Positions 2,311 to 61,555 of a stretch of 64,000 nucleotides of DNA are shown piece after piece. This DNA is from an uncultured Candidatus Saccharibacteria bacterium (GTDB taxonomy: Bacteria > Patescibacteriota > Dojkabacteria > J137), in the NCBI GenBank assembly GCA_964393185.1, contig CAYMSO010000002.1:75915-139914 (forward strand). The letters run 5' to 3'. The notes beneath the pieces were generated by a model that made no database searches, was not told where the DNA came from, and was given only the letters and a program-made list of their open reading frames with translations. Within the stretch, counting starts at the first letter, position 1, and each line of letters starts with the position of its first letter. The translations under genes and the position numbers were made by a program.

Positions 2311-3204
2311 TTATTTTTTACTAAGTTCTTGAATTAAATCGCGCATTTCTGCGGCTTTTTCGAATTCCATCATATCGGCATAAATTTGCATCTGAAATTT
2401 GAGTTCCTTAATAAATTTGGATTGCTCGGACTTGGTCATAGCTTTATACGCCTCGGCTTGCTTCATCAAATTTTCTTCATGATAATCTTTCTCTTCCTCC
2501 TTATCTTTAAATCTATCTAATTGGTTTACAATAGCTTTTTTAATAGAGGTAGGCGTTATTCCGTGTTTCTGATTATATTCTTCCTGAACCTTTCTTCTTC
2601 TTCTTGTTTCGTCGATTGCCCTTTTCATTGAATCAGTGATTTTATCGCAGTACATAATCACTTTACCCTCGGAATGTCTAGCTGCTCTTCCAATTGTCTG
2701 AATCAAACTTGTGTCTGATCGCAAGAAACCTTCTTTGTCGGCATCAAGTATAATAACAAGAGACACTTCCGGCAGATCCAATCCTTCTCTTAGTAAATTG
2801 ATTCCTACAAGAACATCGTAGAGCCCTTTTCGTAAATCCCTCAAAATTTCTACTCGCTCTACTGTATCTATGTCTGAATGTAAATACTTAGCTTTTATAT
2901 CTTTTTCAATTAAATAATCCGACAGTTCCTCGGCCATTCTTTTGGTTAGAGTAGTAATCAAAACACGCTCACCTTTTTTGATTCTAAGATCAATTTCTTT
3001 AAGTACATTTGGGATTTGTGGTTCTGACCAATTGCTGGTTTGTGCAATTGGCATATCTAAATAACCGCATCTTTCAACTTCGTTTTTTAACTGCAAAAAT
3101 GTTTCTGGTAAAGTAGGGCGCAACTCGAGTATGGGATCTAATAGCCCAGTTGGTCTTATGATTTGATAAACAATTCCCTGATAGTCTTTAGGTAAAGTAG
3201 ACAT
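2311..3204 (-). CDS. uvrB: UvrB C-terminal half (RecA-like domain 3 plus UVR domain) as a stand-alone gene
   Basis: 297 aa. Starts MSTLPKDYQ, then [15 protein letters not shown]. Helicase motifs [29 protein letters not shown] and [10 protein letters not shown]-terminal UVR helix [14 protein letters not shown]. Confidence 0.9.
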
Positions 3205-8129: not shown

Positions 8130-9863
8130 TTAATAACCATACTTTGTATTCAACTCATTCAGTAAGTCGTAGTATTCATCAGCAGAGATTTCATTATTAT
8201 TATATCTTTCAGTTATTTCATCATAATCATTTAGATATCCTTCATAATCAAAATCTTCGAAGTTGAAATCATCTAATGAAGAATCATCATAATCATAGTC
8301 ATAATTATAATCTGACTCAATTGATGGTCCCAATGGTTTATATAGATTATCCGTTATCATTGATGTATCGAATAATTGTTCTAAATCCATCTCTCCTACT
8401 AATGCGTTAAAGCCTTCAGTAAAGTCCATATCAGCTTCTGGAACTACTATCTCGTAATCAGAATCGTAGCTTACTGTCAAAAATTGTAATTCAATATTTG
8501 AGGATACTTCGTCTGCATCAAAAGAAACTTTAAGACCGATACCTCTACTAGTGTCATCTTCTTTGTCTGAACACGAAGTCATACTCATCTTAAGATCCAA
8601 ATCTTCTAATGAGTTTTCTAACTCATCCATTGTTTCGTCAATAGATTCTTCAATATCCTCGACTGATTCTTCTCCTTCGTAAGATTCATCTTCAACAATT
8701 ACTTTTGCCATTTTTTTACCACCATTTCTTGTTACTTCTATCATATTTGCGAAATTTACATCTCCTGATACACATTTTGAGTTGCTTTCTTCTCTTATTG
8801 GGTCTACATTTTCCACATTGGAGAATACTTCGTAGTCGTTTATCATATCTTCCAATATGCTCATTAATTTTGGACCCACTCTCTGTAATATTTCTCTGTC
8901 TTCTTCATCCATTGATTCAAGTGTCTGCTCAAGACTAGTGTTAAATTCTTTAATAAAGTCGGATTTGCTTAATTCTTCTGTATCAAGACCATTAGAATAT
9001 GTTTGCAATAATTCAGCGTACTGAGGTATTAATTCAGCAACAAATGATTCTGCATTTATAGTAACTACCTTGTCCTCAATTGCAGCAATTGAATTAATTT
9101 CGTCCTGAGATAAACCTTCTTCTGCATCAATTTCTACATTACTTAGTTTTAAATATCCCTGAAGTTTATCCATTGTATATTCAAAATCTGCCTTGATCAC
9201 ATCTTCTGCTACTCTGTAGTCAAGATTACCTTCAACGTACATTGTTGGTAGCAAATTACCTAATTCTTCAGTATCCAAGTCTTCTAGGTAAGCTTGAAGA
9301 TCTTCTATATCTTCGAGATTATTTTCAGAATAATTTTCTGGATATTCGATGTATAGATCAGCACTTAAAGACATTTCGCCTTCAAAATCATCTTCTTTAT
9401 TTTCAAAATCTACATTCATTTCAATTGTGTTGTAGACAGTTTTTCCAGAAAGATCTATATCTTTTGAAGCAAGATGATTCAACTTGCCTGCAGATTCTTC
9501 GATATCTTCTACAAGCTTTTCTATGTCAAATACTTTCTTTGGATCTTCAGAATCTAATTCATCAAAATTGATAGCATTTATTACTGTTTTAATATTATCC
9601 TTTGCATATGCTTCCAATTCCTCAACTCCCGAATCAGCAGAGCTTACGCTAGAACTATCAGATACATTATTGTAAAGGAAGTATCCACCCAACGCCAAAG
9701 CAGCAGCTACAGCTACAACCCCTGCTACCACTAATCCAAAAGATGTCGGATTTTTCTTAGCAGGTGTTTCGGAAGCAGGAACGCTTTTTTCAGAGTTACT
9801 TACCGTATGCTCTGTCTCTGGCTTTGTTTCCTTTTCTTCCTCCTTGTTTTTTTTCTCCTCCAT
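8130..9863 (-). CDS. Hyper-acidic membrane-anchored protein, function unknown
   Basis: 577 aa. Lys/Glu-rich N-terminus, one TM (FGLVVAGVVAVAAALALGGYFLY), then a long D/E-rich ectodomain ending in DYNYDYDYDD-type tracts. Confidence 0.5.
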   Translation of the reverse strand: MEEKKNKEEEKETKPETEHTVSNSEKSVPASETPAKKNPTSFGLVVAGVVAVAAALALGGYFLYNNVSDSSSVSSADSGVEELEAYAKDNIKTVINAINFDELDSEDPKKVFDIEKLVEDIEESAGKLNHLASKDIDLSGKTVYNTIEMNVDFENKEDDFEGEMSLSADLYIEYPENYSENNLEDIEDLQAYLEDLDTEELGNLLPTMYVEGNLDYRVAEDVIKADFEYTMDKLQGYLKLSNVEIDAEEGLSQDEINSIAAIEDKVVTINAESFVAELIPQYAELLQTYSNGLDTEELSKSDFIKEFNTSLEQTLESMDEEDREILQRVGPKLMSILEDMINDYEVFSNVENVDPIREESNSKCVSGDVNFANMIEVTRNGGKKMAKVIVEDESYEGEESVEDIEESIDETMDELENSLEDLDLKMSMTSCSDKEDDTSRGIGLKVSFDADEVSSNIELQFLTVSYDSDYEIVVPEADMDFTEGFNALVGEMDLEQLFDTSMITDNLYKPLGPSIESDYNYDYDYDDSSLDDFNFEDFDYEGYLNDYDEITERYNNNEISADEYYDLLNELNTKYGY

Positions 9864-10023: not shown

Positions 10024-10127
10024 ATAACCGACAACTGATCACTGATAACCGATGACTGACTACCGATTACTGATTACTGATCGCTGATAACTGACAACCG
10101 ATTACCGACAACTGATAACTGATAAAC
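10024..10127 (+). repeat. Degenerate tandem heptamer array (about 15 units, AACYGAT type) abutting the gpmI stop codon
   Basis: ATAACCG ACAACTG ATCACTG ATAACCG ATGACTG ACTACCG ATTACTG ATTACTG ATCGCTG ATAACTG ACAACCG ATTACCG ACAACTG ATAACTG. Confidence 0.85.
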
Positions 10128-11744
10128 CTAGTTCAACAAATTTCTGCCTGTCATATCAGCTGGCTGTTCAATGCCCAAGATACCAAGTATAGTAGGAGCT
10201 ATATCGGCAAGACCACCCATTGGCAGTTCGATAGGTGGAATATTATTTCCAATAATCAATAAGGGAACTTCATTTGTAGAGTGTTTTGTATCTGGGTCTC
10301 CTGTCTGTAGATTTATCATTTCTTCTGCATTACCATGATCAGCCGAAATTACAACTACGCCGTCCAAGCTAAGTACTTTTTCCACTACCTGGCCTATACA
10401 TTTATCGCAAACTTCCATAGATTTGACAGTTGCATCTATAACTCCAGTATGTCCTACCATATCTGGACCAGCAAAATTTGTGAGTATAAAATCAAACTCC
10501 TTGGAATCTATTTTTTTAATCAACTCCGTAGTCATCCATTCTTGACTCATTTCTGGCTTTAGATCATAGCTCGGAACATCTTTGGGAGAAGGAATTTCTA
10601 ACCACACCTCATTTTCAGAAACATTTCCATTGCCTCCATTAAAAAAGTAAGTAACATGCGCAAATTTTTCTGATTCGGCAATTCTAAGCTGTTTAATTCC
10701 ATGTATCGAAAGAACTTTACCAAGTGGATTAGTAATATCTTCTACAGGAAACGCTATATTTTTAGGATGTCCCTTACCATAATCTGTCATTCCAGTGAAG
10801 CTAATCCCAGTTAGCTGTGGACGCTGGAAATGCTTAAAGTTTTCATCTTCAAAAGCCATACTTAACTGCAAAGCCCTATCTTGTCTAAAATTGAAGAAAA
10901 TTATGCTGTCATTATTCTGAACTTTAACAGGAACTTTATCTACTTTATTGACAACCACTAATGGTTCTATATACTCATCAAAAATCTTCTTTTTATACGA
11001 TTCTTCAAGAGCTTTCTTCCAATCCATCACTACTTCGCCCTTAGCCAATGTGATTAATTCGTATGCTTTTTTAGTCCTTAACCAGTTTCTATTTCTATCC
11101 ATCGCATAAGCCCTGCCCACAATTGATACTATTCTTCCCATTTTCTTTTGTAAGCAATAGGTTTCCAATCTTTCTAAAAGTTCAATTCCTGCATCTGGAT
11201 TAGAATCTCTCCCGTCTAAAAATACATGAATATAAACTTTGTCGGGATTCATTTCTAAGTTGGCAGCCATTTTTATTAAGGCTTGCAGATGTTCAAACGA
11301 AGAATGTACATGTCCAGATCCTATAAGTCCCATAAAGTGTAATCCACTTTTAGCTTTTTTAGCTTGATTAAAAGAATCTAAAAGAATAGGATTTGATTCA
11401 AATGTATCTTTTTGAATAGCATTATCGATTCTGGGTTTGTCTTGCAAAATGACTTTTCCCGCACCCATAGTCATATGACCGACCTCACTATTTCCATCAG
11501 TCCCTGCTGGTAATCCAACATAAAGCCCGGAAGCCTGAATAACTCCATGCGCATATTTAGGCCAGTATTTATCTAAATTAGAAGTATCTGCCAAGGTTAC
11601 AGCATTACCTGGCCCAGGCGGCGCAACTCCAACCCCGTCCATCGAAATCAGAACTACGGGCTTTGGTCTTTTACTTATTTTTTGTTCTGTATTACTAAAA
11701 AGTCCCATCAAATTAGTATATACATAATCACTATAAAGTGCCAA
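10128..11744 (-). CDS. gpmI: 2,3-bisphosphoglycerate-independent phosphoglycerate mutase
   Basis: Full-length similarity. Motifs ISMDGVG, FLDGRDS and SADHGNAE. The track start at 11744 is a TTG; an ATG at 11708 is an alternative start. Confidence 0.9.
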   Translation of the reverse strand: MALYSDYVYTNLMGLFSNTEQKISKRPKPVVLISMDGVGVAPPGPGNAVTLADTSNLDKYWPKYAHGVIQASGLYVGLPAGTDGNSEVGHMTMGAGKVILQDKPRIDNAIQKDTFESNPILLDSFNQAKKAKSGLHFMGLIGSGHVHSSFEHLQALIKMAANLEMNPDKVYIHVFLDGRDSNPDAGIELLERLETYCLQKKMGRIVSIVGRAYAMDRNRNWLRTKKAYELITLAKGEVVMDWKKALEESYKKKIFDEYIEPLVVVNKVDKVPVKVQNNDSIIFFNFRQDRALQLSMAFEDENFKHFQRPQLTGISFTGMTDYGKGHPKNIAFPVEDITNPLGKVLSIHGIKQLRIAESEKFAHVTYFFNGGNGNVSENEVWLEIPSPKDVPSYDLKPEMSQEWMTTELIKKIDSKEFDFILTNFAGPDMVGHTGVIDATVKSMEVCDKCIGQVVEKVLSLDGVVVISADHGNAEEMINLQTGDPDTKHSTNEVPLLIIGNNIPPIELPMGGLADIAPTILGILGIEQPADMTGRNLLN

Positions 11745-11747
11745 GAA

Positions 11748-11831
11748 GAGTTTTGAGTTATTGGGGTGTGGGTTATGAGGTTTTGAGTTTTGAGTTATGA
11801 CTTTTGGGTTTTGAGTTGTGGGGTTTGAGGG
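11748..11831 (-). repeat. Heptamer array in opposite orientation (G/T-rich on the + strand), immediately upstream of gpmI
   Basis: GAGTTTT GAGTTAT TGGGGTG TGGGTTA TGAGGTT TTGAGTT TTGAGTT ... The reverse complement reads AACTCAA/AACCCAA units. Confidence 0.8.
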
Positions 11832-20523: not shown

Positions 20524-21182
20524 ATATTAAACTGGATGATTCCTGGAAACAGCTTCTGAAAGATGAGTTTGAAAAAGACTATTTTAAGAATTTAGTCAAT
20601 TTTATTAAAGATGAATATACCAATAATGTAATTTATCCTCCTGGTCCATTAATATTTAGAGCACTGAACGAGTGTAAGTTTGAAGATGTTAAGGTAGTAA
20701 TTTTGGGACAGGATCCATACCATACTCCTGGTGTGGCAAATGGGCTAGCATTTTCGGCTAATCATGGTCAAAAAATTCCTCCATCATTACTAAATATATA
20801 CAAAGAACTACAGAATGATTTAGGAAAGAATATTCCTGATTCTCCTGATTTAAGTAGATGGGCCAGACAAGGGGTTTTATTGTTGAATGCTACGCTTACA
20901 GTCAGAAAGGGACAAGCAGCTTCCCATCAAAATAAAGGCTGGGAAATTTTTACCGATGCAATCATAAAAATAATTTCGGAACAAAAAGATCATGTTGTGT
21001 TTTTTCTTTGGGGAGCATATGCACAAAAGAAAGGTGAAATTATAGACGAAGAAAAGCACTTAGTTATTAAATCAGCACATCCTTCTCCCTTTTCTGCAGA
21101 TAAAGGCTTTTTTGGTAGTAGACCATTCTCTCAAGCTAATGAATTTTTAAGAACAGTAGGAAAAACACAAATCAACTGGTAA
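20520..21182 (+). CDS. ung: Uracil-DNA glycosylase (family 1)
   Basis: GQDPYH, LLLNATLTV and HPSPFSA motifs. Confidence 0.9.
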   Translation: MNIKLDDSWKQLLKDEFEKDYFKNLVNFIKDEYTNNVIYPPGPLIFRALNECKFEDVKVVILGQDPYHTPGVANGLAFSANHGQKIPPSLLNIYKELQNDLGKNIPDSPDLSRWARQGVLLLNATLTVRKGQAASHQNKGWEIFTDAIIKIISEQKDHVVFFLWGAYAQKKGEIIDEEKHLVIKSAHPSPFSADKGFFGSRPFSQANEFLRTVGKTQINW

Positions 21183-21269
21183 CCCATAACCACTCCCCAT
21201 AACTCATAACTCGTAACTCACAACCCATAACCCGTAACTCAAAACTCAAAACCCATAACCCACAACTCC
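21181..21269 (+). repeat. Degenerate tandem heptamer array (about 12 units, AACYCAT/AACTCAA type) starting inside the ung stop codon
   Basis: AACCCAT AACCACT CCCCATA ACTCATA ACTCGTA ACTCACA ACCCATA ACCCGTA ACTCAAA ACTCAAA ACCCATA ACCCACA. Confidence 0.85.
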
Positions 21270-39915: not shown

Positions 39916-42309
39916 TTAATCTTTCGAAATATTGCCTTTATCATTATATATTTGAGCAGCCCATTTGTTAATTTTAAATTCAATTTCTTCTTTGCTACTG
40001 GCATACGATTCTCTACTTAACTTAATTATTTCTTCCTTTAACTCTTCTGGCTTAAAGTTAGGCAACATTAAAATGCCAGTAAAAGGATTGCTCTGAGACC
40101 CATCTATTGTGAGTTTTATAGCCATTCTGAATTTTTCTAAGTTAACAAGGTCCTCCATATTCAAAAAAGGCGCATATTCTTTTTGTAACCTCAATGCATC
40201 TTTCTGACTTACTACATAATTAATTAATGTACCTACATTCCCAAAAATTGCATCCTGTACTTCTGTACTAATCTGATCGATATATTGATGAGTAACAAAT
40301 AGATTAAGACCGTATTTTCTTGATTCAGAAAGTATTTTTATAAAAGTATCGGTCGAAAAATTTTGAAATTCATCTACGTATAAATAAAAGTCCCTTCTAC
40401 GATCCAGGATCATGTTTGCCCTTTGCATTGCATTTGTATAGATTCTCGTAATTAACATACCTCCAAGCAAAGAAGTATTTTCCTCTCCAATTTTACCTTG
40501 AGATAAATTAACCAAAAGAATTTTACCCGAATCCATTATCTCTCTAAAATCTATGGTCGATTTTATTTGCCCAATCATGTTTCGAATCATTGGAGAGTTC
40601 AAAAATCTACCTACTTTATTATTAATAGGAGCCACAGCTTCAGAAATTAAGCGTGGGTTCTTTGCCATTTCTTCAAATTCCTGCTCCCAAAATTTAATCA
40701 AAAATGGATCTTTCACCTGTTTAAGCAAGAATTTCCTATAGTTCTTATCCTGCAAAATTCTTTGAACTGCAAGTAGCGAAACATTTTGACAATGAAGTAG
40801 AGTAAGGACTGTATTTGTCAATATATACTGTAATCTTGGCCCCCACGAGTTGCCAAAGAACTTTTTAAAGACAGTTACAATGCCATCTGCAAGAAGTTCC
40901 ATCGATTCTCCTTCCTTAATATCCAGCATGTTAAGACCCACTGGATATTCTGTATCGGAAGGATCTATATATACTACATCTTTAAGTCTGTGCTGTGGAA
41001 TAAGGTTCAAAACATGTTCAACTAGTTCGCCATGTGGATCGATAATGCCAAATCCTTCGCCATCATGAATATCTCCATAAACTAGTCGTTGTATCAAAGC
41101 ACTTTTACCAGTGCCTGTTTTTCCTATCAAATACATGTGTCTTCTTCTATCTTCTTTTTTTATGCCAAAAGGCACATGCACGTTTCTATAATCTGTATAG
41201 CCAAATACTCGTATGCCATAATTGTTTTTTATACTTGAATCATAATTGGGTATAACTGGTAAATTCGCCGGTATTTCCAATTTTTTTGATCTAGCCCAAT
41301 CAATGTTTGGAGTTTTTACAGATTCATTTGGAAAATGATAAAGAGAAGCCAGTTCTTCTGTATTAATAATATTAACTTCTTTCTCGTCCAAAAATCTTCT
41401 TATATATTTTTCTTTAATACTTAAAGACTGTTCTAATCTTTTGCCTAAAAATAATGTTTTGATTGCAGAAGTTGAATTCTTCTTGGCAGCAAGGCTATTG
41501 AGTTTTCCTCTTTGGAATTGTTTAAAGGATGCCTCAATATCTTCCATTAAGTTATTCACCATCATTTTGTCTGGGCCTTTTACAATTACTCGCACAGTAA
41601 ATTGATAGCCTGATTTATTGCTTTTTTGTTCAATTTCTCTAATTTCTTGAAGCTGATCAGTATCTAATGGTGTGGATGCCGTTTGTATTTCTGGTTTTGA
41701 TCTAGCGGAGTCTTTTAAAGTTTTTACAAATGACTTTCCAGTGTCTTGCCAATAGCTGGCTACAGGTCTGCATACTATTTGTATCCAGGCTTCAAAACCA
41801 TTTTGCATTTTGGATATTGAAGAAGTTATAGGTCCAAGTGGATCAATCTCAAAATTTTTAAATGTGTTCAAAGGGTACATACTTTCTCTGGCAAGTCCAT
41901 ATTCTGCCACACTTATAACACCATTAAACTGACGGATAGTTTCCACGTAATCCTTCACCAGAGTAATTTGTGCTTCGGGATATTGAGCGTAAACCTGGTT
42001 TTCGATAAAGTTTTTGTATCTTTTGCTACATACTATTAAGAAAAAAATACCCATCGAGTTTCCTACAATTTCAAAACTGAAAAGATCCTTTGACTTTGAA
42101 TTATTTCTCAAGGTTCCATGTAGGGATTGAAAAAAAGCTTCTGCTGCTAGTGGTTTTTTGTCGTTGTAAAGTGGAACAGCAATTTTTAATACTATTCTTT
42201 CTTTAATTGTCTCATTTACTGTGATTTTTAAATAATTACGACGAAGTTGATAGGTATATAGACCTACAGCTGGTATAAATAGTAGTGTGATTAGCAGTAT
42301 TATTGTCAT
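39916..42309 (-). CDS. VirB4/VirD4-superfamily (HerA/FtsK-fold) T4SS ATPase with N-terminal TM
   Basis: Walker A YLIGKTGTGKS, Walker B FYLYVDEFQNF, SESRKYGLNLFVTHQ. Size and Walker A position resemble VirB4. Confidence 0.7.
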   Translation of the reverse strand: MTIILLITLLFIPAVGLYTYQLRRNYLKITVNETIKERIVLKIAVPLYNDKKPLAAEAFFQSLHGTLRNNSKSKDLFSFEIVGNSMGIFFLIVCSKRYKNFIENQVYAQYPEAQITLVKDYVETIRQFNGVISVAEYGLARESMYPLNTFKNFEIDPLGPITSSISKMQNGFEAWIQIVCRPVASYWQDTGKSFVKTLKDSARSKPEIQTASTPLDTDQLQEIREIEQKSNKSGYQFTVRVIVKGPDKMMVNNLMEDIEASFKQFQRGKLNSLAAKKNSTSAIKTLFLGKRLEQSLSIKEKYIRRFLDEKEVNIINTEELASLYHFPNESVKTPNIDWARSKKLEIPANLPVIPNYDSSIKNNYGIRVFGYTDYRNVHVPFGIKKEDRRRHMYLIGKTGTGKSALIQRLVYGDIHDGEGFGIIDPHGELVEHVLNLIPQHRLKDVVYIDPSDTEYPVGLNMLDIKEGESMELLADGIVTVFKKFFGNSWGPRLQYILTNTVLTLLHCQNVSLLAVQRILQDKNYRKFLLKQVKDPFLIKFWEQEFEEMAKNPRLISEAVAPINNKVGRFLNSPMIRNMIGQIKSTIDFREIMDSGKILLVNLSQGKIGEENTSLLGGMLITRIYTNAMQRANMILDRRRDFYLYVDEFQNFSTDTFIKILSESRKYGLNLFVTHQYIDQISTEVQDAIFGNVGTLINYVVSQKDALRLQKEYAPFLNMEDLVNLEKFRMAIKLTIDGSQSNPFTGILMLPNFKPEELKEEIIKLSRESYASSKEEIEFKINKWAAQIYNDKGNISKD

Positions 42310-42422: not shown

Positions 42423-45083
42423 TTATTGCTTTTGCATAGTTATTGGAATTTTCAAAGACGCAGCACTACCATACCCACTTATACCAAATGCTACTGCATC
42501 TGTTACTAGTGCACCTCCAGAAACACCGCTACCGCTGATCATACCACCTACAAACGTTTTTTGGAGTGGATCAAGCTTACCAAATAGTTGCACCAAACTG
42601 CCCATTACAGTCGCATCCCCAGGCTTTCTTTCTATTACCAACTCAAACTTAATCTCTAATAGCTTTCCTGCGCCATACGTAGGATAAGGTTGAGGATTAG
42701 ATCCAGATACCAATAATTTTAGCATCCCATTTGTTATATGATACCAACGACTTGTTCTCCTATCGTAAGCCCACATGAAAGGGTCATTTCCATTGCTTAG
42801 CCGCTTAAACGGCTGAGTAATACCTCTCTGGAATCCAGCAGGTGAGCTTACTACGGCTATATCCATTGGATCTATAGTTCTGCCAAATTCAAAATCTTTA
42901 GGCATTAAGGTAAGCTTACCATTGTTCCTGGCAATGTATCTAACTGGAGGTGCTCCCTCTGCTGGATTAGCTATAGCACCACTTGCTGGATCTACATTAC
43001 AACTTCTAAATATTTGGATAATTTCGTTGACAGTAAATTCTATAGTATTATCAGGATTCTGTGGAAAAGTAAATTTAAAATCTATACCTATTTCTTTACC
43101 TTCTTCGTGTATAGATCCACCGCTTCGCATATTTACTCCTGTTAAACCTGTCATACTTCCCTCAAACAAATTTGTGCCTTTTTGTAAAATTTCACCGACT
43201 GCCCTGGCAGCGCCACCCCTGTTAATTAAATTACCTATTCTCGTCCTTGCAAGAGTTCCTAGCTCATTCATTTTATCTTCTGCCGAGCCCTGTTGTCCTG
43301 CCTTAACGCCAACCATTCTGTTGTAGGTTGCTGCACTAAATTTGCCTACCGCTCTTGTAGGAACTAGCGCTGCATTTCTCATTTTTGTTGTCACTGCTCC
43401 TTCTCTGAAGGTAGCATTTTTCCTTATATCATTTGCTAAGTTAAGCGAGTCTTTAGCACTAGAAAACGCACCACTTACAAATGTAGGGATAACTGCTTTC
43501 GTACCCATAGAATCATCAATGGAATTTAGTATATTCGGAACGTTTAAATAAATCATTATGGCTAGAACTCCAAATACCAATGCGTTTACACTGTTAAATA
43601 ATAAATCCCCGCCACCAGATATTAATTCTTCTAAACCCAATAGTGGAGGTACATAGCCAGACTTGCCTAGGTCTGGTATAGAGTTTTGAAAAGCCTCGGT
43701 AGAAAAGATAATTGCGAGTAAAAACATTGCATAAGTAACAATGTAAAAAAGCGAAGCAGCTCCCATAATTTTTGCAAATTGCATAATTTGCTTTGTGCCA
43801 TTGCCTGGAATTGCTATAGTAGCAAAGATAAAAGGGGAGGCAATTGGAGCTAATAAGAAAACAAGATACTTCATCAAAAGTAATTTTAGAATTCTAAGCC
43901 CAGTAAAGAACAACAGGATTCTTATAAAAAAATTTATAATATCTCCAATCCAAGCTATGGGTCCACCATCTGATTGACCCAATACTTCTAGTATAGCTGC
44001 TACAGTAAGTCCTAGATTATCACCTATAATAGTTGAACCTATACTTTGCAAACCGTGTTGTATCTCATCACTTACATTTACATTACCGCCGGAAGAATAC
44101 CACGTCAATCTAGGGTCATCTGGGTAGAGACCTCTATCGTTCTCTGCATATCCTATACAACCAGGTGGTTTGTTATTATCGTCAGGTGAGTCGCAATTTC
44201 TGTTTTCGTACACAGATCGTGCAGGTGCGCCGGGTCCGATCAAGAATTGTCTAACCACATTTGTGCCTATTGTTACGCTATCTATAAATAATCCGCTAAT
44301 AGCATAGCTAAGTGGAATAAGAATCATGGCCAGTGCTATGTTCGGAATTGCATTTTGTATGGTTACAGAAACTCCTCCAGGCAATTGAGCTCTAAACATA
44401 ATAGAGAATGCTACTCCAATAATTAGAAAGATCATTAATCCGTATACTATATTAACAGACCAACCCCAAAAATCCTGAATAGGTTTTAATAGAGTAAATC
44501 CGTTACCAGGATAGTATAGTGCATCGGCGTTATCTTGTGCATTAACCTGACCTAAATTTTTTATTGCGTAAACTTGCTGTTGAAAGTATACCTGTCCACT
44601 TGCGGGACGTTCATCTAGCAATTTATTACTTGCAGCTAATACTACACCCGATAGTCCCCTAGTTGCATCAGGATTATTTAGTCTGGCTTGTCTCTGCACA
44701 AAGTTTTCTGCAGTTATTTTACATCCGCCATTACCATCAGATTCTGTAACTTCAGCCAAGAATTCCGAATAAGTTTGATAGTCTGTAGAAAGAATTTTTG
44801 CCCATGGTTTCATTAATCCGCCCCACAAGCTTCCTTGTGCAGGAGATATAGGGCACGCTGTACCATATAGCAATTGATTTACTTCAGGATCCCCAACACT
44901 CCAAGCATTCATATCGCTTGCTGTGTCGAATATTCCATTAGCTTCTATATCTTTGCTAGGCCAAAAAAAGGGAATAATTACCAAGAAAGCTACTAGCAGA
45001 ATTACTACTAACCTGTATGTATAGATCTTATTGTAGACAAAGCAAATTTTATCTTTCACGTTTTGCAAAACATTTTCTAACAA
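42423..45083 (-). CDS. Very large polytopic membrane protein (VirB6/TrbL-like role inferred from context)
   Basis: 886 aa, 8 or more TM helices in the central part, large soluble N- and C-terminal regions. Non-ATG (TTG) start in the track, so the start is uncertain. Confidence 0.4.
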   Translation of the reverse strand: MLENVLQNVKDKICFVYNKIYTYRLVVILLVAFLVIIPFFWPSKDIEANGIFDTASDMNAWSVGDPEVNQLLYGTACPISPAQGSLWGGLMKPWAKILSTDYQTYSEFLAEVTESDGNGGCKITAENFVQRQARLNNPDATRGLSGVVLAASNKLLDERPASGQVYFQQQVYAIKNLGQVNAQDNADALYYPGNGFTLLKPIQDFWGWSVNIVYGLMIFLIIGVAFSIMFRAQLPGGVSVTIQNAIPNIALAMILIPLSYAISGLFIDSVTIGTNVVRQFLIGPGAPARSVYENRNCDSPDDNNKPPGCIGYAENDRGLYPDDPRLTWYSSGGNVNVSDEIQHGLQSIGSTIIGDNLGLTVAAILEVLGQSDGGPIAWIGDIINFFIRILLFFTGLRILKLLLMKYLVFLLAPIASPFIFATIAIPGNGTKQIMQFAKIMGAASLFYIVTYAMFLLAIIFSTEAFQNSIPDLGKSGYVPPLLGLEELISGGGDLLFNSVNALVFGVLAIMIYLNVPNILNSIDDSMGTKAVIPTFVSGAFSSAKDSLNLANDIRKNATFREGAVTTKMRNAALVPTRAVGKFSAATYNRMVGVKAGQQGSAEDKMNELGTLARTRIGNLINRGGAARAVGEILQKGTNLFEGSMTGLTGVNMRSGGSIHEEGKEIGIDFKFTFPQNPDNTIEFTVNEIIQIFRSCNVDPASGAIANPAEGAPPVRYIARNNGKLTLMPKDFEFGRTIDPMDIAVVSSPAGFQRGITQPFKRLSNGNDPFMWAYDRRTSRWYHITNGMLKLLVSGSNPQPYPTYGAGKLLEIKFELVIERKPGDATVMGSLVQLFGKLDPLQKTFVGGMISGSGVSGGALVTDAVAFGISGYGSAASLKIPITMQKQ

Positions 45084-45136: not shown

Positions 45137-45220
45137 CGGTTATCGGTAATGAGTTTTCAGAGTACTTGATTCTTATCTTATGTCCTTTTCTTCAAATTAC
45201 TGAAAACCGAAAACTGATAA
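45137..45220. repeat. Two short heptamer-type arms in inverted orientation upstream of the P-type ATPase
   Basis: GGTTATCGGTAATGAGTTTTCAG ... 38 nt ... CTGAAAACCGAAAACTGATAA. The arms match 15/21 as an inverted repeat. Confidence 0.6.
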
Positions 45221-45300: not shown

Positions 45301-47832
45301 ATGATACATGGATTAACCTCGGCCGAAGTCAATAGAAAAAAGACTTTGGGACTAACCAATCAAAAAATAGATTCATATTCGCCAAGTTACTTAAGCATTG
45401 TAAGAAGAAACACTTTCAGTCTTATGAACTTTGTGATTATTCCATTGGTTATATTACTTTACGCATTTAAGCTTTACAACGATGCCACTGTTTTTGGAGT
45501 TTTTGTGCTTGGCAATACAATTCTTAACTCCTTTGAAGAAATCAGAATAAAAAGACGTATAGAAAAACTAATTCAAGAGTTTCAACAGAAAACTAAGGTA
45601 ATTAGAGATGGCATTGTACAGGAAATTCCTTCCAGCGAAGTTGTAATTGGCGACTATATAAAGGCAGAAGAAGGTGAAGCCATAATCACCGATGGAAAAA
45701 TAGTGCAAGAAAATTATTTACAAATCGATGAATCGGCATTAACTGGAGAATCAGATTATATAAAAAAGAAAGTTAACGATCAGGTACTATCTGGTAGTTT
45801 CGTAGTAACAGGAGATTGCATCTATACTGCTCAGAAAGTTGGTAAGCAAAACTATTTGAACGAGCTTGGTTCTAAAAGTCTTACATACAAAAAGACTAAA
45901 AGTAGATTAGAGAAGTCGGGGGATAGATTTATTTCTTTCTTTGTAATTACGGGTTTTATAGCTGCGCTTTTCCATCTTTTTATGGCGCGCGAAGGAGGTG
46001 CAAGTCGTGAAGATCTTCTTTTAAGTTTTACAATGGTAATTTCTATAATAATACCGCAGACTTTGATCTTTTTATATGGATTAACTTTTGTAATTTCTAT
46101 AACAAAGCTTGCAAACAGAGGGATTCTTGTTCAAAAAAGAGGAGCCATAGACGATCTGGCAGGTATCGATACAATTTGCATAGATAAGACAGGTACAATT
46201 ACTACAAACCAAATGTATGTTGCAGAAAATAAATACTTTAATCTAAAGGAAGAATTAATTGGAAGAGTGTTCAACTCTGCAAGTAAATTATTCTATGGAA
46301 AGAACAAAACATCTTCCGCAATCGAAAACATTTATGCCACATTTGAAACTATTGAATTTTCAGATTTTGATCAGATTCCATTTACGTCACGTAATAAGTA
46401 TAGTGCATTTTCCTTTTTTCAAGAAGACACCAAGCATATTGTTTTTCTTGGCGCCCCAACAATTTTACTTAATCTTGTAGAAAAAAATTTAAAAATTGAA
46501 TTAGAAAACCATGTAAAGAAACAGGAAGACAAGGGTTTTAGAGTAATAATATTACTTTACTCAACAAAACAAAAGATTGAATTAAACAACATTCAAACAA
46601 TAGAGGATGTAAAACAGGTATTTGATTCGGCAGCTTGCTTTTCTATTCAAGAAAATTTAAATCCAGGAATTAAAGAAATTCTTAAACAACTTCGAGAACA
46701 GGAAATAGATGTTAAAGTGATTTCTGGAGACAGCTATAAGTCAGTTTCGGATATTGCTCAAAAAATTGGCTTTCCAAATCCCAGAATTATAGATGTATCT
46801 CAAACTAATGAGAGACTCGAAAGATTAGCTTTGGAATATAATATTTTTACTAGAGCTAAACCAGAAGATAAATTAGTAATTATCAAAACACTACGAGAGA
46901 ACGGTCATAAAGTAGCAATGATAGGTGATGGAATCAATGATGTACTTAGCATGAAACAATCTACAGTAAGTATCGCCATGGAAAATGGTGCAAAAATTGC
47001 TAGAGACGTCGCAGACATTGTTCTTCTTCAAAATGATTACAAGAAAGTTCCTCAAATATTTTACGAAGGCGATAATATAGTTTTTAACTTAAAACTAACT
47101 ACCAAAATTTTTTATGCCAAAGCATTTATGGGATTTGTGATTGCTGGTTTTTTCGCACTGTTAATGAAACCAATTCCGATTTTGCCTTCAACTTCTCTAA
47201 TATTTAGTTTCTTTGGAGGAACATTTATTAGTTATGTAGTTTCCTTTTCTAGACAGCAAGTAAAAAATCAGACAGACTTTACAAAAAACATTATCGCAAC
47301 TGCAACTCCTAGTGGAATTTTTATGGGATTGTCAATCATTTTAATGTATTTAATAAATAAGAGCACCTCTTTTGACCTACTAAATAGTTATCTAGTTATG
47401 GGGTTACTTTCTGTAAGTTTGGTATATGCAATTTACCTTCTTTGGGAGGCTGAAAAAATTAATTCAATAAAATTTATGTTATTTGTATGGATTATAGGAA
47501 TGTTCTATGGAATGTTACTTATAAACTTACCAATATATTCTTATAACGAAGTAAGTAATAAGGTGATTGGATTATTAGGACTAATCATAACATCATCTAT
47601 CTTCTTTACTTATATTGTGTATAAGATTTCGAGTCACAGTGCAAATAGGATTAAGTACGCAATCGTTTTAGGACTTGCTCATTTTTTAGTGCTGATGATA
47701 TTCCCATTTAAGTATTATTACCAGGCAGAGCCAATCAACAAGCACTTAACATTAGATATAGTCTTAGTAACTGCATTGTTTAGTATTATAATGCTTATAC
47801 TTCATAGAATCTTCAAGTTCTTTGGAAATTAG
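45301..47832 (+). CDS. Cation-transporting P-type ATPase
   Basis: N-terminal GLTSAEV, TGES, phosphorylation site CIDKTGTITTN, hinge MIGDGINDV. ATG at 45301 is preferred over the upstream TTG at 45166. Confidence 0.85.
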   Translation: MIHGLTSAEVNRKKTLGLTNQKIDSYSPSYLSIVRRNTFSLMNFVIIPLVILLYAFKLYNDATVFGVFVLGNTILNSFEEIRIKRRIEKLIQEFQQKTKVIRDGIVQEIPSSEVVIGDYIKAEEGEAIITDGKIVQENYLQIDESALTGESDYIKKKVNDQVLSGSFVVTGDCIYTAQKVGKQNYLNELGSKSLTYKKTKSRLEKSGDRFISFFVITGFIAALFHLFMAREGGASREDLLLSFTMVISIIIPQTLIFLYGLTFVISITKLANRGILVQKRGAIDDLAGIDTICIDKTGTITTNQMYVAENKYFNLKEELIGRVFNSASKLFYGKNKTSSAIENIYATFETIEFSDFDQIPFTSRNKYSAFSFFQEDTKHIVFLGAPTILLNLVEKNLKIELENHVKKQEDKGFRVIILLYSTKQKIELNNIQTIEDVKQVFDSAACFSIQENLNPGIKEILKQLREQEIDVKVISGDSYKSVSDIAQKIGFPNPRIIDVSQTNERLERLALEYNIFTRAKPEDKLVIIKTLRENGHKVAMIGDGINDVLSMKQSTVSIAMENGAKIARDVADIVLLQNDYKKVPQIFYEGDNIVFNLKLTTKIFYAKAFMGFVIAGFFALLMKPIPILPSTSLIFSFFGGTFISYVVSFSRQQVKNQTDFTKNIIATATPSGIFMGLSIILMYLINKSTSFDLLNSYLVMGLLSVSLVYAIYLLWEAEKINSIKFMLFVWIIGMFYGMLLINLPIYSYNEVSNKVIGLLGLIITSSIFFTYIVYKISSHSANRIKYAIVLGLAHFLVLMIFPFKYYYQAEPINKHLTLDIVLVTALFSIIMLILHRIFKFFGN

Positions 47833-47842
47833 ATCATCAACA

Positions 47843-47871
47843 TTGACGTAATCAAGCTGACATCATATAAT
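47843..47871 (+). promoter_or_regulatory. Near-consensus sigma70-type promoter TTGACG-17 nt-TATAAT
   Basis: Read directly. 25 nt upstream of the ATG at 47897. Confidence 0.6.
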
Positions 47872-47896
47872 GGTGGCATATTAATACATAAATAAT

Positions 47897-48304
47897 ATGA
47901 GCAATCGAGACCCAGACTTATCACGACCTGGTTCGGAAGAGAGGCCAATAGTAATAGAAAATTCCTTCACTAGTGACACCCAACCTATAATTGACGCTAT
48001 CAGCCAAGCAATTAAAATCGCAATCATAGATAGATATGCATTCATAGATCATAGAGTTTTCAGCATAAGTCTTTCTAATCAGGAGAACGGAAAACCAGAA
48101 CTTACTACAATCAAAATCAATGTAAAATTTAATGCACATCCTTATGCTGCCCAGCATTTTTGGAATACACTACTAAGAGAAATTCCGGGTTTTGAACCTA
48201 CAGAAGATAATGTTGAATTGTTTATTCCTGTGAGAGTTCCATTTAATGAATGGTCTACTGCCGTGCCTAATACAGAAGAAGATGCAGATGATTCAGAAAT
48301 ATAA
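47897..48304 (+). CDS. Hypothetical small acidic protein
   Basis: 135-aa ORF behind a strong promoter. No motif. Confidence 0.4.
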   Translation: MSNRDPDLSRPGSEERPIVIENSFTSDTQPIIDAISQAIKIAIIDRYAFIDHRVFSISLSNQENGKPELTTIKINVKFNAHPYAAQHFWNTLLREIPGFEPTEDNVELFIPVRVPFNEWSTAVPNTEEDADDSEI

Positions 48305-48357
48305 TTGAGTGCTAAAGTTAGTTTTGTTATAATTTCCTAACAATTTAGCAAAAGCAT

Positions 48358-48612
48358 TGATTGGGAAGAGAAGTAATTCATCCAATTTAAGAGAGATGAC
48401 GGTAGGTGAAAGTCATTATTGCAAATTACTTCAGCCACCCATGAGCAGACTGCAAGAAAGACAAAAGTCACAAGCAGCTCCGAAAACTACATCGTTAAAG
48501 TAGGTTGTACAAAGTACAACAGAGGCTGTAACAGCAATGTTAGAGCGAATAAAGGTGGTACCACGGAAATCCGTCCTTTGTGTTTAATAAACATAGAGGA
48601 CGGGTTTTTTGG
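48358..48612 (+). promoter_or_regulatory. T-box riboswitch leader, Ala-specific (specifier GCC), with intrinsic terminator
   Basis: Stem I: helix AGTAATT/AATTACT, AG bulge AAGAGAG, distal hairpin GATGAC-GGTAGGTGAAA-GTCATT, specifier loop TCA-GCC-A closed by GGG/CCC. T-box sequence AATAAAGGTGGTACCACGG (48548-48566). Terminator CCGTCCT...AGGACGG plus TTTTTT (48571-48610). Extended -10 at 48325-48333. Confidence 0.75.
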
Positions 48613-48668
48613 GTTTTGGGTTGTGAGTTTTGGGTGTTGGGTTATGGGTTATGGGTGTTGGGTTAGGG
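48603..48668 (-). repeat. G-rich heptamer array (GGGTTNT-type, nine GGG tracts) directly after the T-box terminator
   Basis: GGGTTTTTTGGGTTTTGGGTTGTGAGTTTTGGGTGTTGGGTTATGGGTTATGGGTGTTGGGTTAGGG. The reverse complement reads AACCCAT/AACCCAA units. Confidence 0.85.
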
Positions 48669-48708
48669 ATTATTATCGACAGTGCATAAATTGTGTTTTA
48701 TTTAAAAT

Positions 48709-49194
48709 ATGGGCTATATTAAACGCAAAACACTTCGAAAACCGAGCCATAATTACAATGGAAAATATTCATATTTCATAACAATTTGCACGAAAAATAG
48801 GAAGGAATTCTTCGGCAAAATTGTAAATTCGCAGATGAATTTAACCGATATAGGAGAAACTGCATTGCAATGCTGGAATGAAATACCAATTCATTATCCT
48901 GGTACAAAATTAGATAATTTCGTAATCATGCCTGACCACATACATGGAATATTACATTTAGAAGGAGTGGCAACGCATGCGTTGTCACTTCAATCCGAAA
49001 AGCGCAAATATGATAGATTACCACGTGTCATAGGTGGATTTAAATCAGCAGTATCAAAATTAATCCATCAAAAATTCCCTGATAGAAATTTTAAATGGCA
49101 ACGTTCATACAATGATAAAATAATCATGAATGAATACGAATTAGAAAATGTCAGAAAATATATTATTAAAAATCCATCATTAATCAAAAATTAA
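48709..49194 (+). CDS. IS200/Y1 HUH-type transposase-like protein of the REP-associated (RAYT) kind
   Basis: 161 aa. YSYFITICTKNR, HUH motif MPDHIHGIL, C-terminal WQRSYNDKII (catalytic Tyr region), YIIKNP. Confidence 0.75.
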   Translation: MGYIKRKTLRKPSHNYNGKYSYFITICTKNRKEFFGKIVNSQMNLTDIGETALQCWNEIPIHYPGTKLDNFVIMPDHIHGILHLEGVATHALSLQSEKRKYDRLPRVIGGFKSAVSKLIHQKFPDRNFKWQRSYNDKIIMNEYELENVRKYIIKNPSLIKN

Positions 49195-49226
49195 AATTTA
49201 AAAAAATCATATATTAATAAAAGTCT

Positions 49227-51200
49227 ATGACAAACTCACAAATCTCAAACCACACAACCTCATTTAAAAACTCAAAACTCGAAACTCAAGACCACAAGTC
49301 ATCAAAACAAATACGACACGACTTCATCAATTTCTGGACCTCAAGTCCTAGAAACGCAAAAGAAGTACCAAATGTTTCTCTTGTTCCAAACAACGATCCA
49401 ACTTTACTTTTCGTTAATTCAGGAATGTTTCCAATTAATCCATATTTAGCAGGTCAGCCGCACCCATTGGGAACTAGACTTTGCAATTTACAAAGATGCT
49501 TGAGAACAAACTATGACGAAATGCTCGAAATTGGAGATAACAGGCACACATTAATGTTTGAAATGATGGGTAATTGGTCTTTGGGTGACTTTACAAAAGT
49601 TGATCAAATTCCGTGGATTATGGAATTCTGGGTTAAAGTTTGCGGACTTGATCCTAAAAGACTTTATGTTTCAGTTTTCGAAGGCAATGATGCTGCACCA
49701 CGCGATGATTTGGCAATTGAAACCTGGAAGAAAACCTTCAGAGAGTATGGCGTTGAAGCAGAATTCTCAGATGATATAACAAATATTCCAAAAGATCTAA
49801 AAGAAGGTGAAACATGGAAATATAGAATTTTCCCCTATGGTAAAAAGAAAAATTGGTGGCAAAGAGCTGCTGATGCACCAGGAGAATTAGGCGGCCCAAC
49901 ATCAGAAATGTTTTACGATATGGGAGAAATTATTCAACAACAGGATAAATATCATATTAATGATGATTCTGGAAGATTCATTGAAATTGGGAATAACGTT
50001 TTCATGGAATATAAATTTAGCGAGGAAGGTAAATGGGTTCTAATGGACAAGAAAAATATTGACTTTGGTGGTGGATTCGAAAGAGTAGTTATGATTGTAC
50101 AAAATAAAAAAGATATTTTCGAAACAGATGTGTATGAAGAAGTTCTGGGAGAAATTGAAAAAATCTCAGGCAAACCCTATAAGAAAGATGGCACTGAATA
50201 CGAAATGACTAAATATTTTAGGATTTTAGCTGATCATTCAAGAGCTGCAACATTTATTTTAGCTGACGGGGTTTTGCCTTCAAATAAAGATCAAGGTTAT
50301 ATTCTCAGAAGATTTATTCGAAGATTAGTACGTTATGGAATTATGCTTGGTATAGAAGGTAATTTTACAAAAACTCTTTCAAAAGCTGTAGTCAATTCAA
50401 TGAATTATGCTTATCCGCACCTTAAAGAGAATGAAGACAAGATTCTAGAAGAAATTGAAAAAGAAGAAATTAAATTTAGAAAGACCCTGACTAATGGATT
50501 AAAAGAAATTAGGAAAATGATTGATAGCAAGGTAAATATAGATGGTAAAAAAGCTTTTTATATTTACGAAACCTATGGTTTTCCTTTAGAAATGACTTTA
50601 GATGAATTCAATATTTCAGAAGATTATCAAATTGAAGAGATAAGTAAAGAATTTAATGAAGAACAAGAAAAGCATAGATCACAGTCAAAAGCAGGTGCAG
50701 AACAAAAGTTTAAAGGAGGCCTAGCTGATCAATCTGTAGAAACTACTAAACTGCATACAGCTCATCATCTGCTATTGAAAGCACTGCAACAAGTTTTAGG
50801 TTCAGAAGTTAAGCAACGAGGAAGTAATATTACAGGCGAAAGATTAAGAATTGATTTTAACTATGGAGATAAATTAACAGATGAGCAGGTCAAACAAGTT
50901 GAAGATATAGTTAATCAAAAAATCGCAGAAGGATTAGCAGTAAAAAGAGTTGAAATGCCAAAAGATGAGGCTGAAAAAATTGGAGCGCAAATGGAATTTG
51001 GACAGAAATATCCTGATACAGTTTCAGTTTACTTTATTGGTGCTGATGAAAATAATAAAGGCTGGTTCTCAGCTGAGTTCTGTGGTGGACCACATGTTAA
51101 AAATACTAAAGAAATTGGTGAAGGTGGAAAGAAATTTAAAATCCAAAAGCAGGAAAATGTAGGTGCAGGAACTAGGAGAATTAAAGCTATTTTGCAATAG
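49227..51200 (+). CDS. alaS: Alanine--tRNA ligase, short form (no C-Ala domain)
   Basis: IRHDFINFW, catalytic core, editing domain HTAHHLL and CGGPHV...GTRRIKAI, then a stop 2 aa later. The first ~25 codons overlap a heptamer array. Confidence 0.9.
   Translation: MTNSQISNHTTSFKNSKLETQDHKSSKQIRHDFINFWTSSPRNAKEVPNVSLVPNNDPTLLFVNSGMFPINPYLAGQPHPLGTRLCNLQRCLRTNYDEMLEIGDNRHTLMFEMMGNWSLGDFTKVDQIPWIMEFWVKVCGLDPKRLYVSVFEGNDAAPRDDLAIETWKKTFREYGVEAEFSDDITNIPKDLKEGETWKYRIFPYGKKKNWWQRAADAPGELGGPTSEMFYDMGEIIQQQDKYHINDDSGRFIEIGNNVFMEYKFSEEGKWVLMDKKNIDFGGGFERVVMIVQNKKDIFETDVYEEVLGEIEKISGKPYKKDGTEYEMTKYFRILADHSRAATFILADGVLPSNKDQGYILRRFIRRLVRYGIMLGIEGNFTKTLSKAVVNSMNYAYPHLKENEDKILEEIEKEEIKFRKTLTNGLKEIRKMIDSKVNIDGKKAFYIYETYGFPLEMTLDEFNISEDYQIEEISKEFNEEQEKHRSQSKAGAEQKFKGGLADQSVETTKLHTAHHLLLKALQQVLGSEVKQRGSNITGERLRIDFNYGDKLTDEQVKQVEDIVNQKIAEGLAVKRVEMPKDEAEKIGAQMEFGQKYPDTVSVYFIGADENNKGWFSAEFCGGPHVKNTKEIGEGGKKFKIQKQENVGAGTRRIKAILQ
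49231..49297 (+). repeat. C/A-rich heptamer array overlapping the 5' end of alaS
   Basis: CAAACTC ACAAATC TCAAACC ACACAAC CTCATTT AAAAACT CAAAACT CGAAACT CAAGACC. Confidence 0.7.
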
Positions 51201-52347: not shown

Positions 52348-52371
52348 ACACTAACTTAGAAAAAGTATTGA

Positions 52372-52410
52372 TGACCTTAAAATCATTCTTTAAGAATGAT
52401 TTTAAGGTCA
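52372..52410 (+). terminator. Perfect 17-bp hairpin between the pilin gene and pilB (attenuator/terminator candidate)
   Basis: TGACCTTAAAATCATTC-TTTAA-GAATGATTTTAAGGTCA. Confidence 0.55.
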
Positions 52411-52429
52411 TAGTTAATTAATTTTGAGT

Positions 52430-61351: not shown

Positions 61352-61555
61352 AATATCAATATAAATTATAAAGCGAATAATTATACTATAGTCGCCATAT
61401 TTTGACAACATCATATAGTTGGCAAAAGATTATAATTCTATTTTACCAAGACCTTGATTCTAGTAAGTAAACTTTTAACCTTCGATTAGAAATGCTAGTT
61501 ACCCAATGAAAATGAAAGTATCCTGAAGTAAATTAAGGTAAACTAATCAGAAGTA

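Follow-up and report, generated by a model that had tools for sequence, protein, structure and literature searches.

What are the degenerate 7-nt tandem repeats that lie scattered between the genes of a 64-kb stretch of metagenome-assembled bacterial DNA (the window, taken at its full length), and what keeps them there? A first reading of the sequence, referred to here as the original prediction, had described them as a dispersed family of strictly phased heptamer arrays with an AAC core at eight sites, among them positions 10024–10127, the focal site of this study. We find that this family is real and that it has already been described elsewhere: the window represents a new host phylum for a known element, not a new class of element. 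With moderate confidence, we explain the arrays as lineage-specific, self-expanding heptanucleotide simple repeats of the TAACTGA and short tandemly repeated repetitive (STRR) kind that have been remodeled by slippage under sequence constraint.

Periodicity at a lag of 7 nt is confined to the reported sites within the window, as judged by Tandem Repeats Finder (TRF), by a self-match scan (lags 3–12, 28- or 42-nt windows), and by comparison with shuffled sequence. The lag-7 scan returned five regions. With 42-nt windows, no region was found at any lag between 3 and 12 other than 7, with 28-nt windows a single stray region appeared at lag 11, and composition-preserving shuffles gave zero lag-7 regions. 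Searching for four consecutive AACYSAH units with up to 3 mismatches yielded 40 overlapping matches, every one of them within the reported sites, compared with 0 in 100 shuffles; array F (49231–49297) has no match to this pattern. Together, TRF, the lag-7 scan, and the pattern search against shuffles establish a dispersed family with a phased AAC core. The window holds seven arrays in 64 kb, five strong and two weak (49231 and 61556), which corresponds to one array per 8–9 kb. The sites are listed below with the strand that carries AAC and the period-7 result of TRF.

163–246, + strand: array A, 12 units with the consensus AACTGAT (TAACTGA in another phase); TRF 163–245, 11.9 copies, 76% matches.
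10024–10127, + strand: array B (focal site), 14–15 units AACTGAT/AACCGAT; TRF 10024–10125, 14.6 copies, 73% matches.
11748–11831, − strand: array C, ∼11 units AAAACTC/AACCCAA (GAGTTTT on the + strand), with indels; TRF 11748–11829, 11.4 copies, 71% matches, 5% indels.
21181–21269, + strand: array D, 12–13 units AACCCAT/AACTCAT/AACTCAA; TRF 21198–21268, 10.1 copies, 79% matches.
45137–45220, no strand assigned: site H, no array, two inverted heptamer stubs of 2–3 units each (45140–45160 and 45200–45220).
48603–48668, − strand: array E, 8–9 units AACCCAA/AACCCAT (GGGTTTT/GGGTTAT on the + strand); TRF 48607–48664, 8.3 copies, 80% matches.
49231–49297, + strand: array F, weak and broken, AAACTCA three to four times plus degenerate units, ∼4 good units; TRF 49267–49289, 3.3 copies, 87% matches.
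61556–61608, + strand: array G, short and mixed (AACTCAT, AACCCCA, GACTGAT, AACTGAT, AACCAAT), with ∼3 clean units plus degenerate ones; TRF 61590–61605, 2.3 copies, 100% matches.

The count of eight sites therefore has to be corrected at 45137–45220, where two inverted stubs take the place of a continuous array. These stubs are 39 nt apart and form a 21-nt inverted repeat (76% complementary) in the divergent gap between an 886-aa open reading frame (ORF) and a P-type ATPase gene. Neither TRF nor the lag-7 scan detects an array at this site, and its fold is not significant (z = −1.9). The arrays at 163, 10024, and 48603 are strictly phased, as is most of the array at 21181, but array C with its indels is not. 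That the arrays are the most G/C-enriched non-coding stretches is partly true, as their GC content ranges from 0.32 to 0.47 in a window with 33.8% G+C. CRISPR was ruled out, in line with the original prediction, because the arrays consist of contiguous 7-nt units and lack repeats of 23–50 nt separated by unique spacers.

We compiled 72 units, each read on the AAC-bearing strand. Their consensus is nACYSAh, with the following composition.

Position 1: A in 54 of 72 units.
Position 2: A in 69 of 72.
Position 3: C in 71 of 72.
Position 4: T in 42 and C in 30 of 72.
Position 5: C in 34 and G in 31 of 72.
Position 6: A in 62 of 72.
Position 7: T in 39, A in 23, and C in 10 of 72; G never.

The units come in two flavors that differ at position 5. 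Flavor 1 (ACTGA/ACCGA, as in AACTGAT/AACCGAT) is found at 163, 10024, and 61556 and in the stubs at 45137, and flavor 2 (ACTCA/ACCCA, as in AACTCAA/AACCCAT) at 11748, 21181, 48603, and 49231. Because AACTGAT is TAACTGA in another phase, flavor 1 shares the unit of a published repeat family (see below). Exact TAACTGA-type direct repeats are present in array A (ACTGATAACTGATAACTGATAAC, 223–245), array B (AACTGATAACTGAT, 10110–10123), and array G (ACTGATAACTGATAAC, 61590–61605), and most non-exact units are one to two substitutions away from TAACTGA.

Units within an array are 71–80% alike according to TRF, and their differences are unevenly distributed. When the four cleanest arrays were sampled for 44 contiguous, untrimmed units and each unit was compared with the consensus of its own array, positions 1–7 showed 12, 2, 0, 12, 3, 4, and 16 deviations, respectively (chi-square p ∼1e-5, a value that is inflated because units within an array share ancestry). 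The dinucleotides AC (positions 2 and 3) and G/C-A (positions 5 and 6) are thus retained in almost all units, whereas positions 1, 4, and 7 drift, and this pattern recurs in each array.

The degeneracy of the units had been taken to exclude recent slippage of one unit. Although the units are indeed degenerate, longer periods outscore the period of 7 nt in TRF by a modest margin: 89% matches for period 21 versus 80% for period 7 at 48607, 84% for period 28 versus 79% at 21196, and 78% for period 35 versus 73% at 10026. This suggests that the latest growth duplicated blocks of three to five units that had already diverged, i.e. that slippage involved several units at a time.

No structure is predicted for the AAC strands, with a minimum free energy of 0 kcal/mol (array A on the + strand, array C on the − strand, and array D on the + strand included). 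The GTT strands form weak, G–U-based folds, most with z scores from −0.9 to −2.8 and the lowest at −3.5 (− strand of array B). Arrays B and C, which lie on either side of gpmI, show no complementarity to each other.

The placement of the arrays relative to genes follows a common theme. Coding sequence occupies 91.6% of the window, and the arrays are assigned to the remaining 8.4% of non-coding DNA, save that array F lies within the alaS ORF. Four arrays lie flush against stop codons, and another two occupy the 5′ ends of genes. The 3′ end of array A directly meets the stop codon of mnmA (247–249; gene on the − strand, assigned by NCBIfam), that of array B the stop codon of gpmI (10128–10130; − strand), and that of array G the stop codon of an ORF for the N-terminal half of UvrB (61609–61611; − strand). 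Array B leaves ∼160 nt before the next − strand gene. In array D, the first unit holds the stop codon TAA of ung, and 56 nt separate the end of the array from the following + strand gene (DUF6159). The predicted adjacency to the stop codons of mnmA, gpmI, ung, and the N-terminal uvrB half was hence borne out, as was the onset of array E within the T-tract of the Ala T-box terminator. The corresponding T-box leader is located at 48348–48581, with the specifier GCC and a terminator fold of −29.4 kcal/mol. Array C occupies the divergent gap between gpmI and tgt, where its AAC strand is directed toward the start of gpmI (likely ATG near 11708).

Array F is found inside the alaS ORF (start at 49227), where it encodes an N-terminal extension of ∼22 amino acids: the first ∼22 codons of AlaRS (MTNSQISNHTTSFKNSKLETQD...) derive from the array (49227–49300). 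The extension is shorter and has a faint 7-nt pattern in the relative L262, and the AlaRS proteins of the relatives L264 and L265 begin at the conserved MKTSEE. Comparison of these N termini indicates that a non-triplet repeat was apparently absorbed into the coding region.

The arrays also share a polarity. In six of the seven (A, B, C, E, F, and G), the 3′ end of the AAC strand touches the neighboring gene or terminator, array D being the sole exception. Orientation with respect to transcription is mixed, and five of the eight sites lie between co-directional genes. The genes next to the arrays have housekeeping functions (mnmA, gpmI, tgt, ung, alaS, and uvrB). GC skew across the window was too noisy to assign a replichore, and consensus scans for terminators and promoters stayed at chance level and were uninformative. 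A corresponding polarity is seen in contigs from IMG/VR: among 59 dereplicated co-directional cases, 16 of 19 stop-abutting arrays carry the GTT strand in sense, a count that is limited by crude ORF calls and by a contig sample with probable phylogenetic clustering, part of it Microcystis-related. As a separate observation, four − strand ORFs of 341–886 amino acids (8130–9863, 42423–45083, 60221–61414, and 62885–63910) have no Pfam match, and the two of them that were searched against NCBIfam gave no match there; three of the four adjoin B, H, and G.

Heptamer repeats of this general type have a history in other bacteria. STRR heptamers were reportedly described in cyanobacteria by Mazel in 1990, so that dispersed heptamers are said to have been known there since about that time; the published units CCCCAGT, TTGGTCA, and CAACAGT were reportedly defined in heterocystous cyanobacteria. 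The arrays of the window resemble STRR and other long heptanucleotide repeats in forming dispersed, non-coding 7-nt tandem families, in the presence of several unit types per genome, and in the slippage origin that has been proposed for them. Indeed, tandem 7-nt units beyond chance length occur at many non-coding loci within the 64 kb, as in STRR and other long repeats. The units themselves differ between the published STRR examples and the window. Among long simple repeats of prokaryotes, those with heptanucleotide units are the most frequent according to Mrazek 2007, as cited in PMC4679880, and they are attributed to polymerase slippage.

The closest counterpart in sequence is the TAACTGA repeat. 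Intergenic direct repeats of this unit were found in marine Beggiatoaceae, in Thiocystis, in 15 Cyanobacteria, and in 5 Bacteroidetes (MacGregor 2015, PMC4679880). They reach 43 copies, are often mixed with other heptamers, have no predicted structure, occupy strain-specific positions, and have no established function (PMC4679880). The window shares with them the identical flavor 1 unit, the head-to-tail and intergenic arrangement near start and stop codons, the mixing with related heptamers (as in Microcystis, Gramella, and Elizabethkingia), the lack of predicted RNA structure, and the strain specificity, as relatives are array-free at the same sites. In contrast, the arrays of the window comprise 8–15 degenerate units (71–80%), whereas 2–6 perfect copies have been published, and most of them are “reverse” and flush after stops, whereas those of the orange Guaymas “Maribeggiatoa” (BOGUAY) are “forward” before starts. 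The window also contains flavor 2, with C at position 5 (AACTCAA/AACCCAT), in the same frame. Finally, its host belongs to the Patescibacteria and falls outside the published range of Beggiatoaceae, Thiocystis, Cyanobacteria, and Bacteroidetes, which widens this range and does not preclude membership. For the candidate phyla radiation (Patescibacteria), a literature search turned up no report of such repeats.

A second counterpart, GGGNATC, is similar in placement. Arrays of this heptamer in Xanthomonas and Nostoc are overrepresented in gaps between co-directional ORFs, in many cases overlap a stop codon, and adjoin the ORF on the 5′ flank of their G-rich strand, whichever way the ORF points (Rehm 2015, PMC4692102). 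The 7-nt period, the enrichment in non-coding DNA, most commonly between co-directional ORFs, and the frequent overlap with or position after stops are all matched in the window, and the polarity toward the ORF is followed by all arrays except D as well as by the 16 of 19 stop-abutting IMG/VR arrays. The GGGNATC heptamers form G-quadruplexes (G4) in vitro (PMC4692102). A corresponding motif (at least four G3 tracts at 7-nt spacing) is complete in array E, which fits G3N4, and partial in arrays C and D, whereas runs of G are missing from A, B, and G. The two families differ in their unit, in that flavor 1 is unable to form G4, and in that the window shows no preference for four units. Two further candidates were rejected: phase-variable contingency simple sequence repeats, because the units are 71–80% alike and not perfect and the neighbors are housekeeping genes, and telomere-like repeats, on the basis of anatomy (contiguous 7-nt units, degenerate, internal, with housekeeping neighbors).

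To which organism the window belongs was deduced from two of the array-flanking genes. Among species-representative genomes, the best matches of gpmI (57–63% identity) are metagenome-assembled genomes (MAGs) of Candidatus Dojkabacteria and MAGs automatically labeled “Saccharibacteria”, and 63% was also the best identity reached through gpmI in genome and metagenome scans. The AlaRS relatives, at 82%, 77%, and 76% identity, carry Dojkabacteria names. These matches place the source of the window among the Patescibacteria as a Dojkabacteria-like member, which is itself absent from the representatives searched. At the sites orthologous to those of the window, relatives lack the arrays. The gpmI flanks of L006, L007, L010, L011, and L086 are array-free, and in L262 (82% AlaRS identity) a spacer of ∼41 nt, devoid of arrays and of a Y1 transposase gene, separates the T-box terminator from alaS; L264 has a gene for a HAD hydrolase in this spacer.

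Heptamer arrays as such are more widespread. In gpmI loci, many of them from Patescibacteria (1.26 and 0.94 Mb), 33 and 27 lag-7 arrays were counted versus 0–12 at any other lag, making period 7 at least twice as common as any other short period. Among the heptamer arrays of these other Patescibacteria-like loci, ACYSA units are not enriched (5 of 60 versus 5% expected), and L265 carries an inverted pair of arrays with another unit, (GTTTGTA)4 and (CTACAAA)4. The ACYSA unit is thus genome-specific and not phylum-wide. Taken together, the 2.2-Mb comparison and the orthologous sites indicate that the propensity for heptamer arrays is broad, that the unit is specific to a genome, and that individual arrays are evolutionarily short-lived.

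The unit itself recurs in IMG/VR, where exact four-unit runs of AACYGAT are present in 54 contigs and of AACYCAW in 42, many with several arrays. Some of these contigs, although labeled viral, are saturated with mixed heptamer arrays (L228, 16 in 12.7 kb; L213, 14 in 13.7 kb), and L244 and L232 hold 13 and 10 arrays, respectively. Short segments of L190 are common to the Microcystis MaMV phages, and L232 has no match among phage records. Inverted pairs are a frequent arrangement of heptamer arrays and could fold into long hairpins. They include (AATTAGG)4 and (CCTAATT)4, located upstream of gpmI in a Clostridia MAG of 64% GC (L077, 1773–1955), a GTAATTG/GTAAATA array with its complement (L118, 2000–2103), the pair in the Dojkabacteria relative L265 (137–392), and positions 45140–45220 of the window.

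How such arrays arise can be outlined as follows. An array would grow and shrink by slipped-strand mispairing or unequal exchange, in a register of 7 nt and in blocks of 21, 28, and 35 nt. It would survive only in DNA that is neither coding nor promoter, where it would fill the free spacer, and point mutation would render its units degenerate. One sequence-specific and strand-aware host factor or process would favor this unit and this polarity; candidates are a single-strand nucleic-acid binder or the replication/repair machinery. Tolerance in free intergenic DNA only would lead to the flush ends against a stop codon, terminator, or start region, and fast turnover would lead to the absence of the arrays from relatives. 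The conserved AC and SA, along with the shared polarity, probably reflect more than neutral slippage and point to the proposed sequence- and strand-specific factor. Since the closest relatives found are array-free at the same sites, the arrays appear to be dispensable for the adjacent housekeeping genes. An effect in cis on the neighbors is probably modest and secondary, the candidate being an unstructured leader or trailer of the mRNA.

Several points weigh against this explanation. Slippage is read from the sequence of the repeats and not from variation in copy number, which would be its direct sign. The advantage of the higher-order periods is modest, as mentioned, and the common ancestry of units tempers the deviation statistics. 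Array D runs counter to the polarity of the other six, and the IMG/VR polarity counts share the weaknesses of their ORF calls and of their clustered contigs. Moreover, a streamlined genome with 91.6% coding sequence should purge neutral arrays, which hints at a function or at a strong generating force.

One alternative places the function in the mRNA. The arrays may be cis-regulatory platforms, in which unstructured, 7-nt-periodic tracts of the untranslated regions would recruit a single-strand RNA-binding protein (S1, cold-shock-domain, or similar). The bound protein would tune translation initiation downstream, or stability and 3′-end formation of the mRNA upstream, as proposed by MacGregor for BOGUAY (PMC4679880). 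The conservation of AC and SA at 7-nt spacing and the wholly unstructured AAC strand are consistent with a platform, and arrays C and F, which directly precede or overlap the 5′ ends of gpmI and alaS, are “forward” as in BOGUAY. Support comes also from other heptamers: in Nostoc, heptamer repeats alter the expression of recF and recO in reporter assays, with the binding partner left unidentified (bioRxiv 10.1101/2022.06.06.494920), and in Xanthomonas most GGGNATC repeats are transcribed (PMC4692102). However, the upstream transcript carries the GTT strand at four arrays and the AAC strand at two, the neighbors are unrelated housekeeping genes, and relatives have the same genes without arrays. 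Furthermore, no candidate binder was found in the window, and no binding protein has been reported for such repeats in any organism. We therefore consider an mRNA platform possible, but rather unlikely as the explanation for the family.

Arrays might instead act through structure or termination, i.e. as G-quadruplexes, as Rho-loading AAC strands, or as insulators between transcription units. The rut sites used by Rho are C-rich, G-poor, and unstructured, and the flavor 2 AAC strands resemble them in being almost G-free, C-rich, and unstructured over 66–89 nt. On its + strand, array E displays nine GGG tracts at 4-nt spacing, which match a G-quadruplex motif with 4-nt loops, directly after a terminator. 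The in vitro G4 formation of the identically placed GGGNATC heptamers and the five co-directional sites point in the same direction. Yet the rut-like strand is part of the upstream transcript at D and F only, and the terminator scans did not rise above chance. Neither G4 nor rut explains the whole family, because the flavor 1 arrays (A, B, and G) lack runs of G and contain as much G as C. On balance, a structural or terminating role is improbable.

The original prediction had also raised the possibility that the arrays are REP-like substrates of a Y1 transposase, whose gene is located in the interval between arrays E and F.

48709–49194, + strand: IS200-like Y1 (HUH) transposase gene, Pfam Y1_Tnp 34.9 bits.

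By this account, the array–Y1–array block would be autonomous, analogous to a REPtron, and the solitary arrays would be non-autonomous derivatives. The gene sits between the Ala T-box leader and alaS, with arrays E and F on either side in inverted orientation. The arms of E and F are 75–83% complementary over 23–28 nt, and comparison with L262 shows the entire block to be an insertion. The arrays are located just past stop codons, as REPs are, and the best NCBIfam match of the protein is REP_Tyr_transpos. The score of this match is 53.4 bits against a cutoff of 80, however, and the “RayT” names given to Y1 homologues by JGI are generic annotation. Known Y1 enzymes recognize hairpins, and REPs are imperfect palindromes that form them, whereas the arrays of the window are direct heptamer repeats devoid of hairpins. 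No flanking arrays were found at the nearest Y1 homologues (47–50% identity, L002–L005), and tblastn detected no Y1 homologue in the 96 array-rich IMG/VR loci (∼0.87 Mb, 233 heptamer arrays) and a single distant one, adjoining no array, in the 2.2 Mb of gpmI loci. In contrast to REPtrons, Y1 genes and heptamer arrays thus do not co-occur in the other loci examined. The flavor 1 arrays (ACTGA) also differ from the flavor 2 arrays that flank the Y1 gene, and finding one flanked gene is not very surprising when eight arrays are spread over 58 gaps (roughly 2% per gene). The similarity to REP/BIME elements and their RAYTs is hence limited to dispersed short intergenic repeats after stops and a Y1 gene with inverted flanking copies, and a role of the arrays as Y1 substrates, unsupported by these comparisons, is very improbable. 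Independent of the arrays, the spacer between the GCC T-box and alaS varies in content, with the Y1 gene in the window (48348–49227), no gene in L262 (9640–9944), and the HAD hydrolase gene in L264 (9093–10001). A gene inserted at this position would come under read-through control by the T-box.

That the arrays are an assembly or sequencing artifact of a MAG is extremely improbable: simple repeats are prone to mis-assembly and Elizabethkingia contigs often end within heptamer repeats (PMC4679880), but the arrays are degenerate and thereby unique in sequence, each fits within a read pair, they are placed precisely between intact ORFs, the same unit family is present in ∼96 unrelated IMG/VR contigs and in published finished genomes, and a separate Logan assembly (L001, run SRR8109492) is identical base for base over positions 47223–49987, arrays E and F included, which makes an assembly artifact very unlikely. 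For the other arrays, independent assemblies were sought through gpmI, ung, the DUF6159 protein, and a 577-aa ORF, and none is on record.

Some further features of the window are listed here.

61609–62847, − strand: N-terminal half of uvrB, 412 amino acids, Pfam ResIII and UvrB_inter, ending in SATPRQYEIEQSKESARLYNK before the stop codon.
2311–3204, − strand: C-terminal half of uvrB, 297 amino acids, Helicase_C, UvrB, and UVR.
53792–54025: 112-nt unit in tandem duplication, 2.1 copies, 89% matches, with the small palindrome CCATTGGCTAAAGCCAATG.
39916–42309, 51904–53800, and 58492–59127: type IV pilus/type IV secretion-like gene cluster.

The two uvrB ORFs are ∼58 kb apart, and each half has its own start and stop. 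ORFs with the N-terminal half only (411–412 amino acids) are also present in L264 and L265; the fission of uvrB therefore looks conserved in this clade. The 112-nt duplication is located in a 312-nt gap after the gene for the PilB-like T2SSE ATPase and has no Rfam match at the gathering threshold. Apart from this ATPase, the pilus/secretion cluster encodes a TrwB/VirD4-like coupling ATPase, a prepilin with an N-methylation motif, and a prepilin peptidase.

The origin and function of dispersed heptamer repeats, reported in other phyla since 2007–2015, are still unexplained. The presence of the TAACTGA unit at one array per 8–9 kb in a 92%-coding Patescibacteria genome makes the view of these repeats as neutral junk less comfortable. 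The polarity observed in the window matches that of the unrelated G-rich heptamers, and AC and SA stay fixed while three positions drift. More speculatively, and in our opinion unlikely, one conserved strand-aware system could be shared or horizontally exchanged between Cyanobacteria, Beggiatoaceae, Bacteroidetes, and Patescibacteria, with a factor that would read the ACYSA core every 7 nt. Such a factor, a single-strand binder or a repeat extender, would deposit, extend, or protect arrays directionally up to gene boundaries. If true, this cross-phylum system would give one cause for the unit shared by four phyla, the two conserved dinucleotides, and the polarity rule. The hypothesis of a single factor is open to phylogenetic profiling or pull-downs, and, if it holds, phylogenetic profiling could identify the factor.

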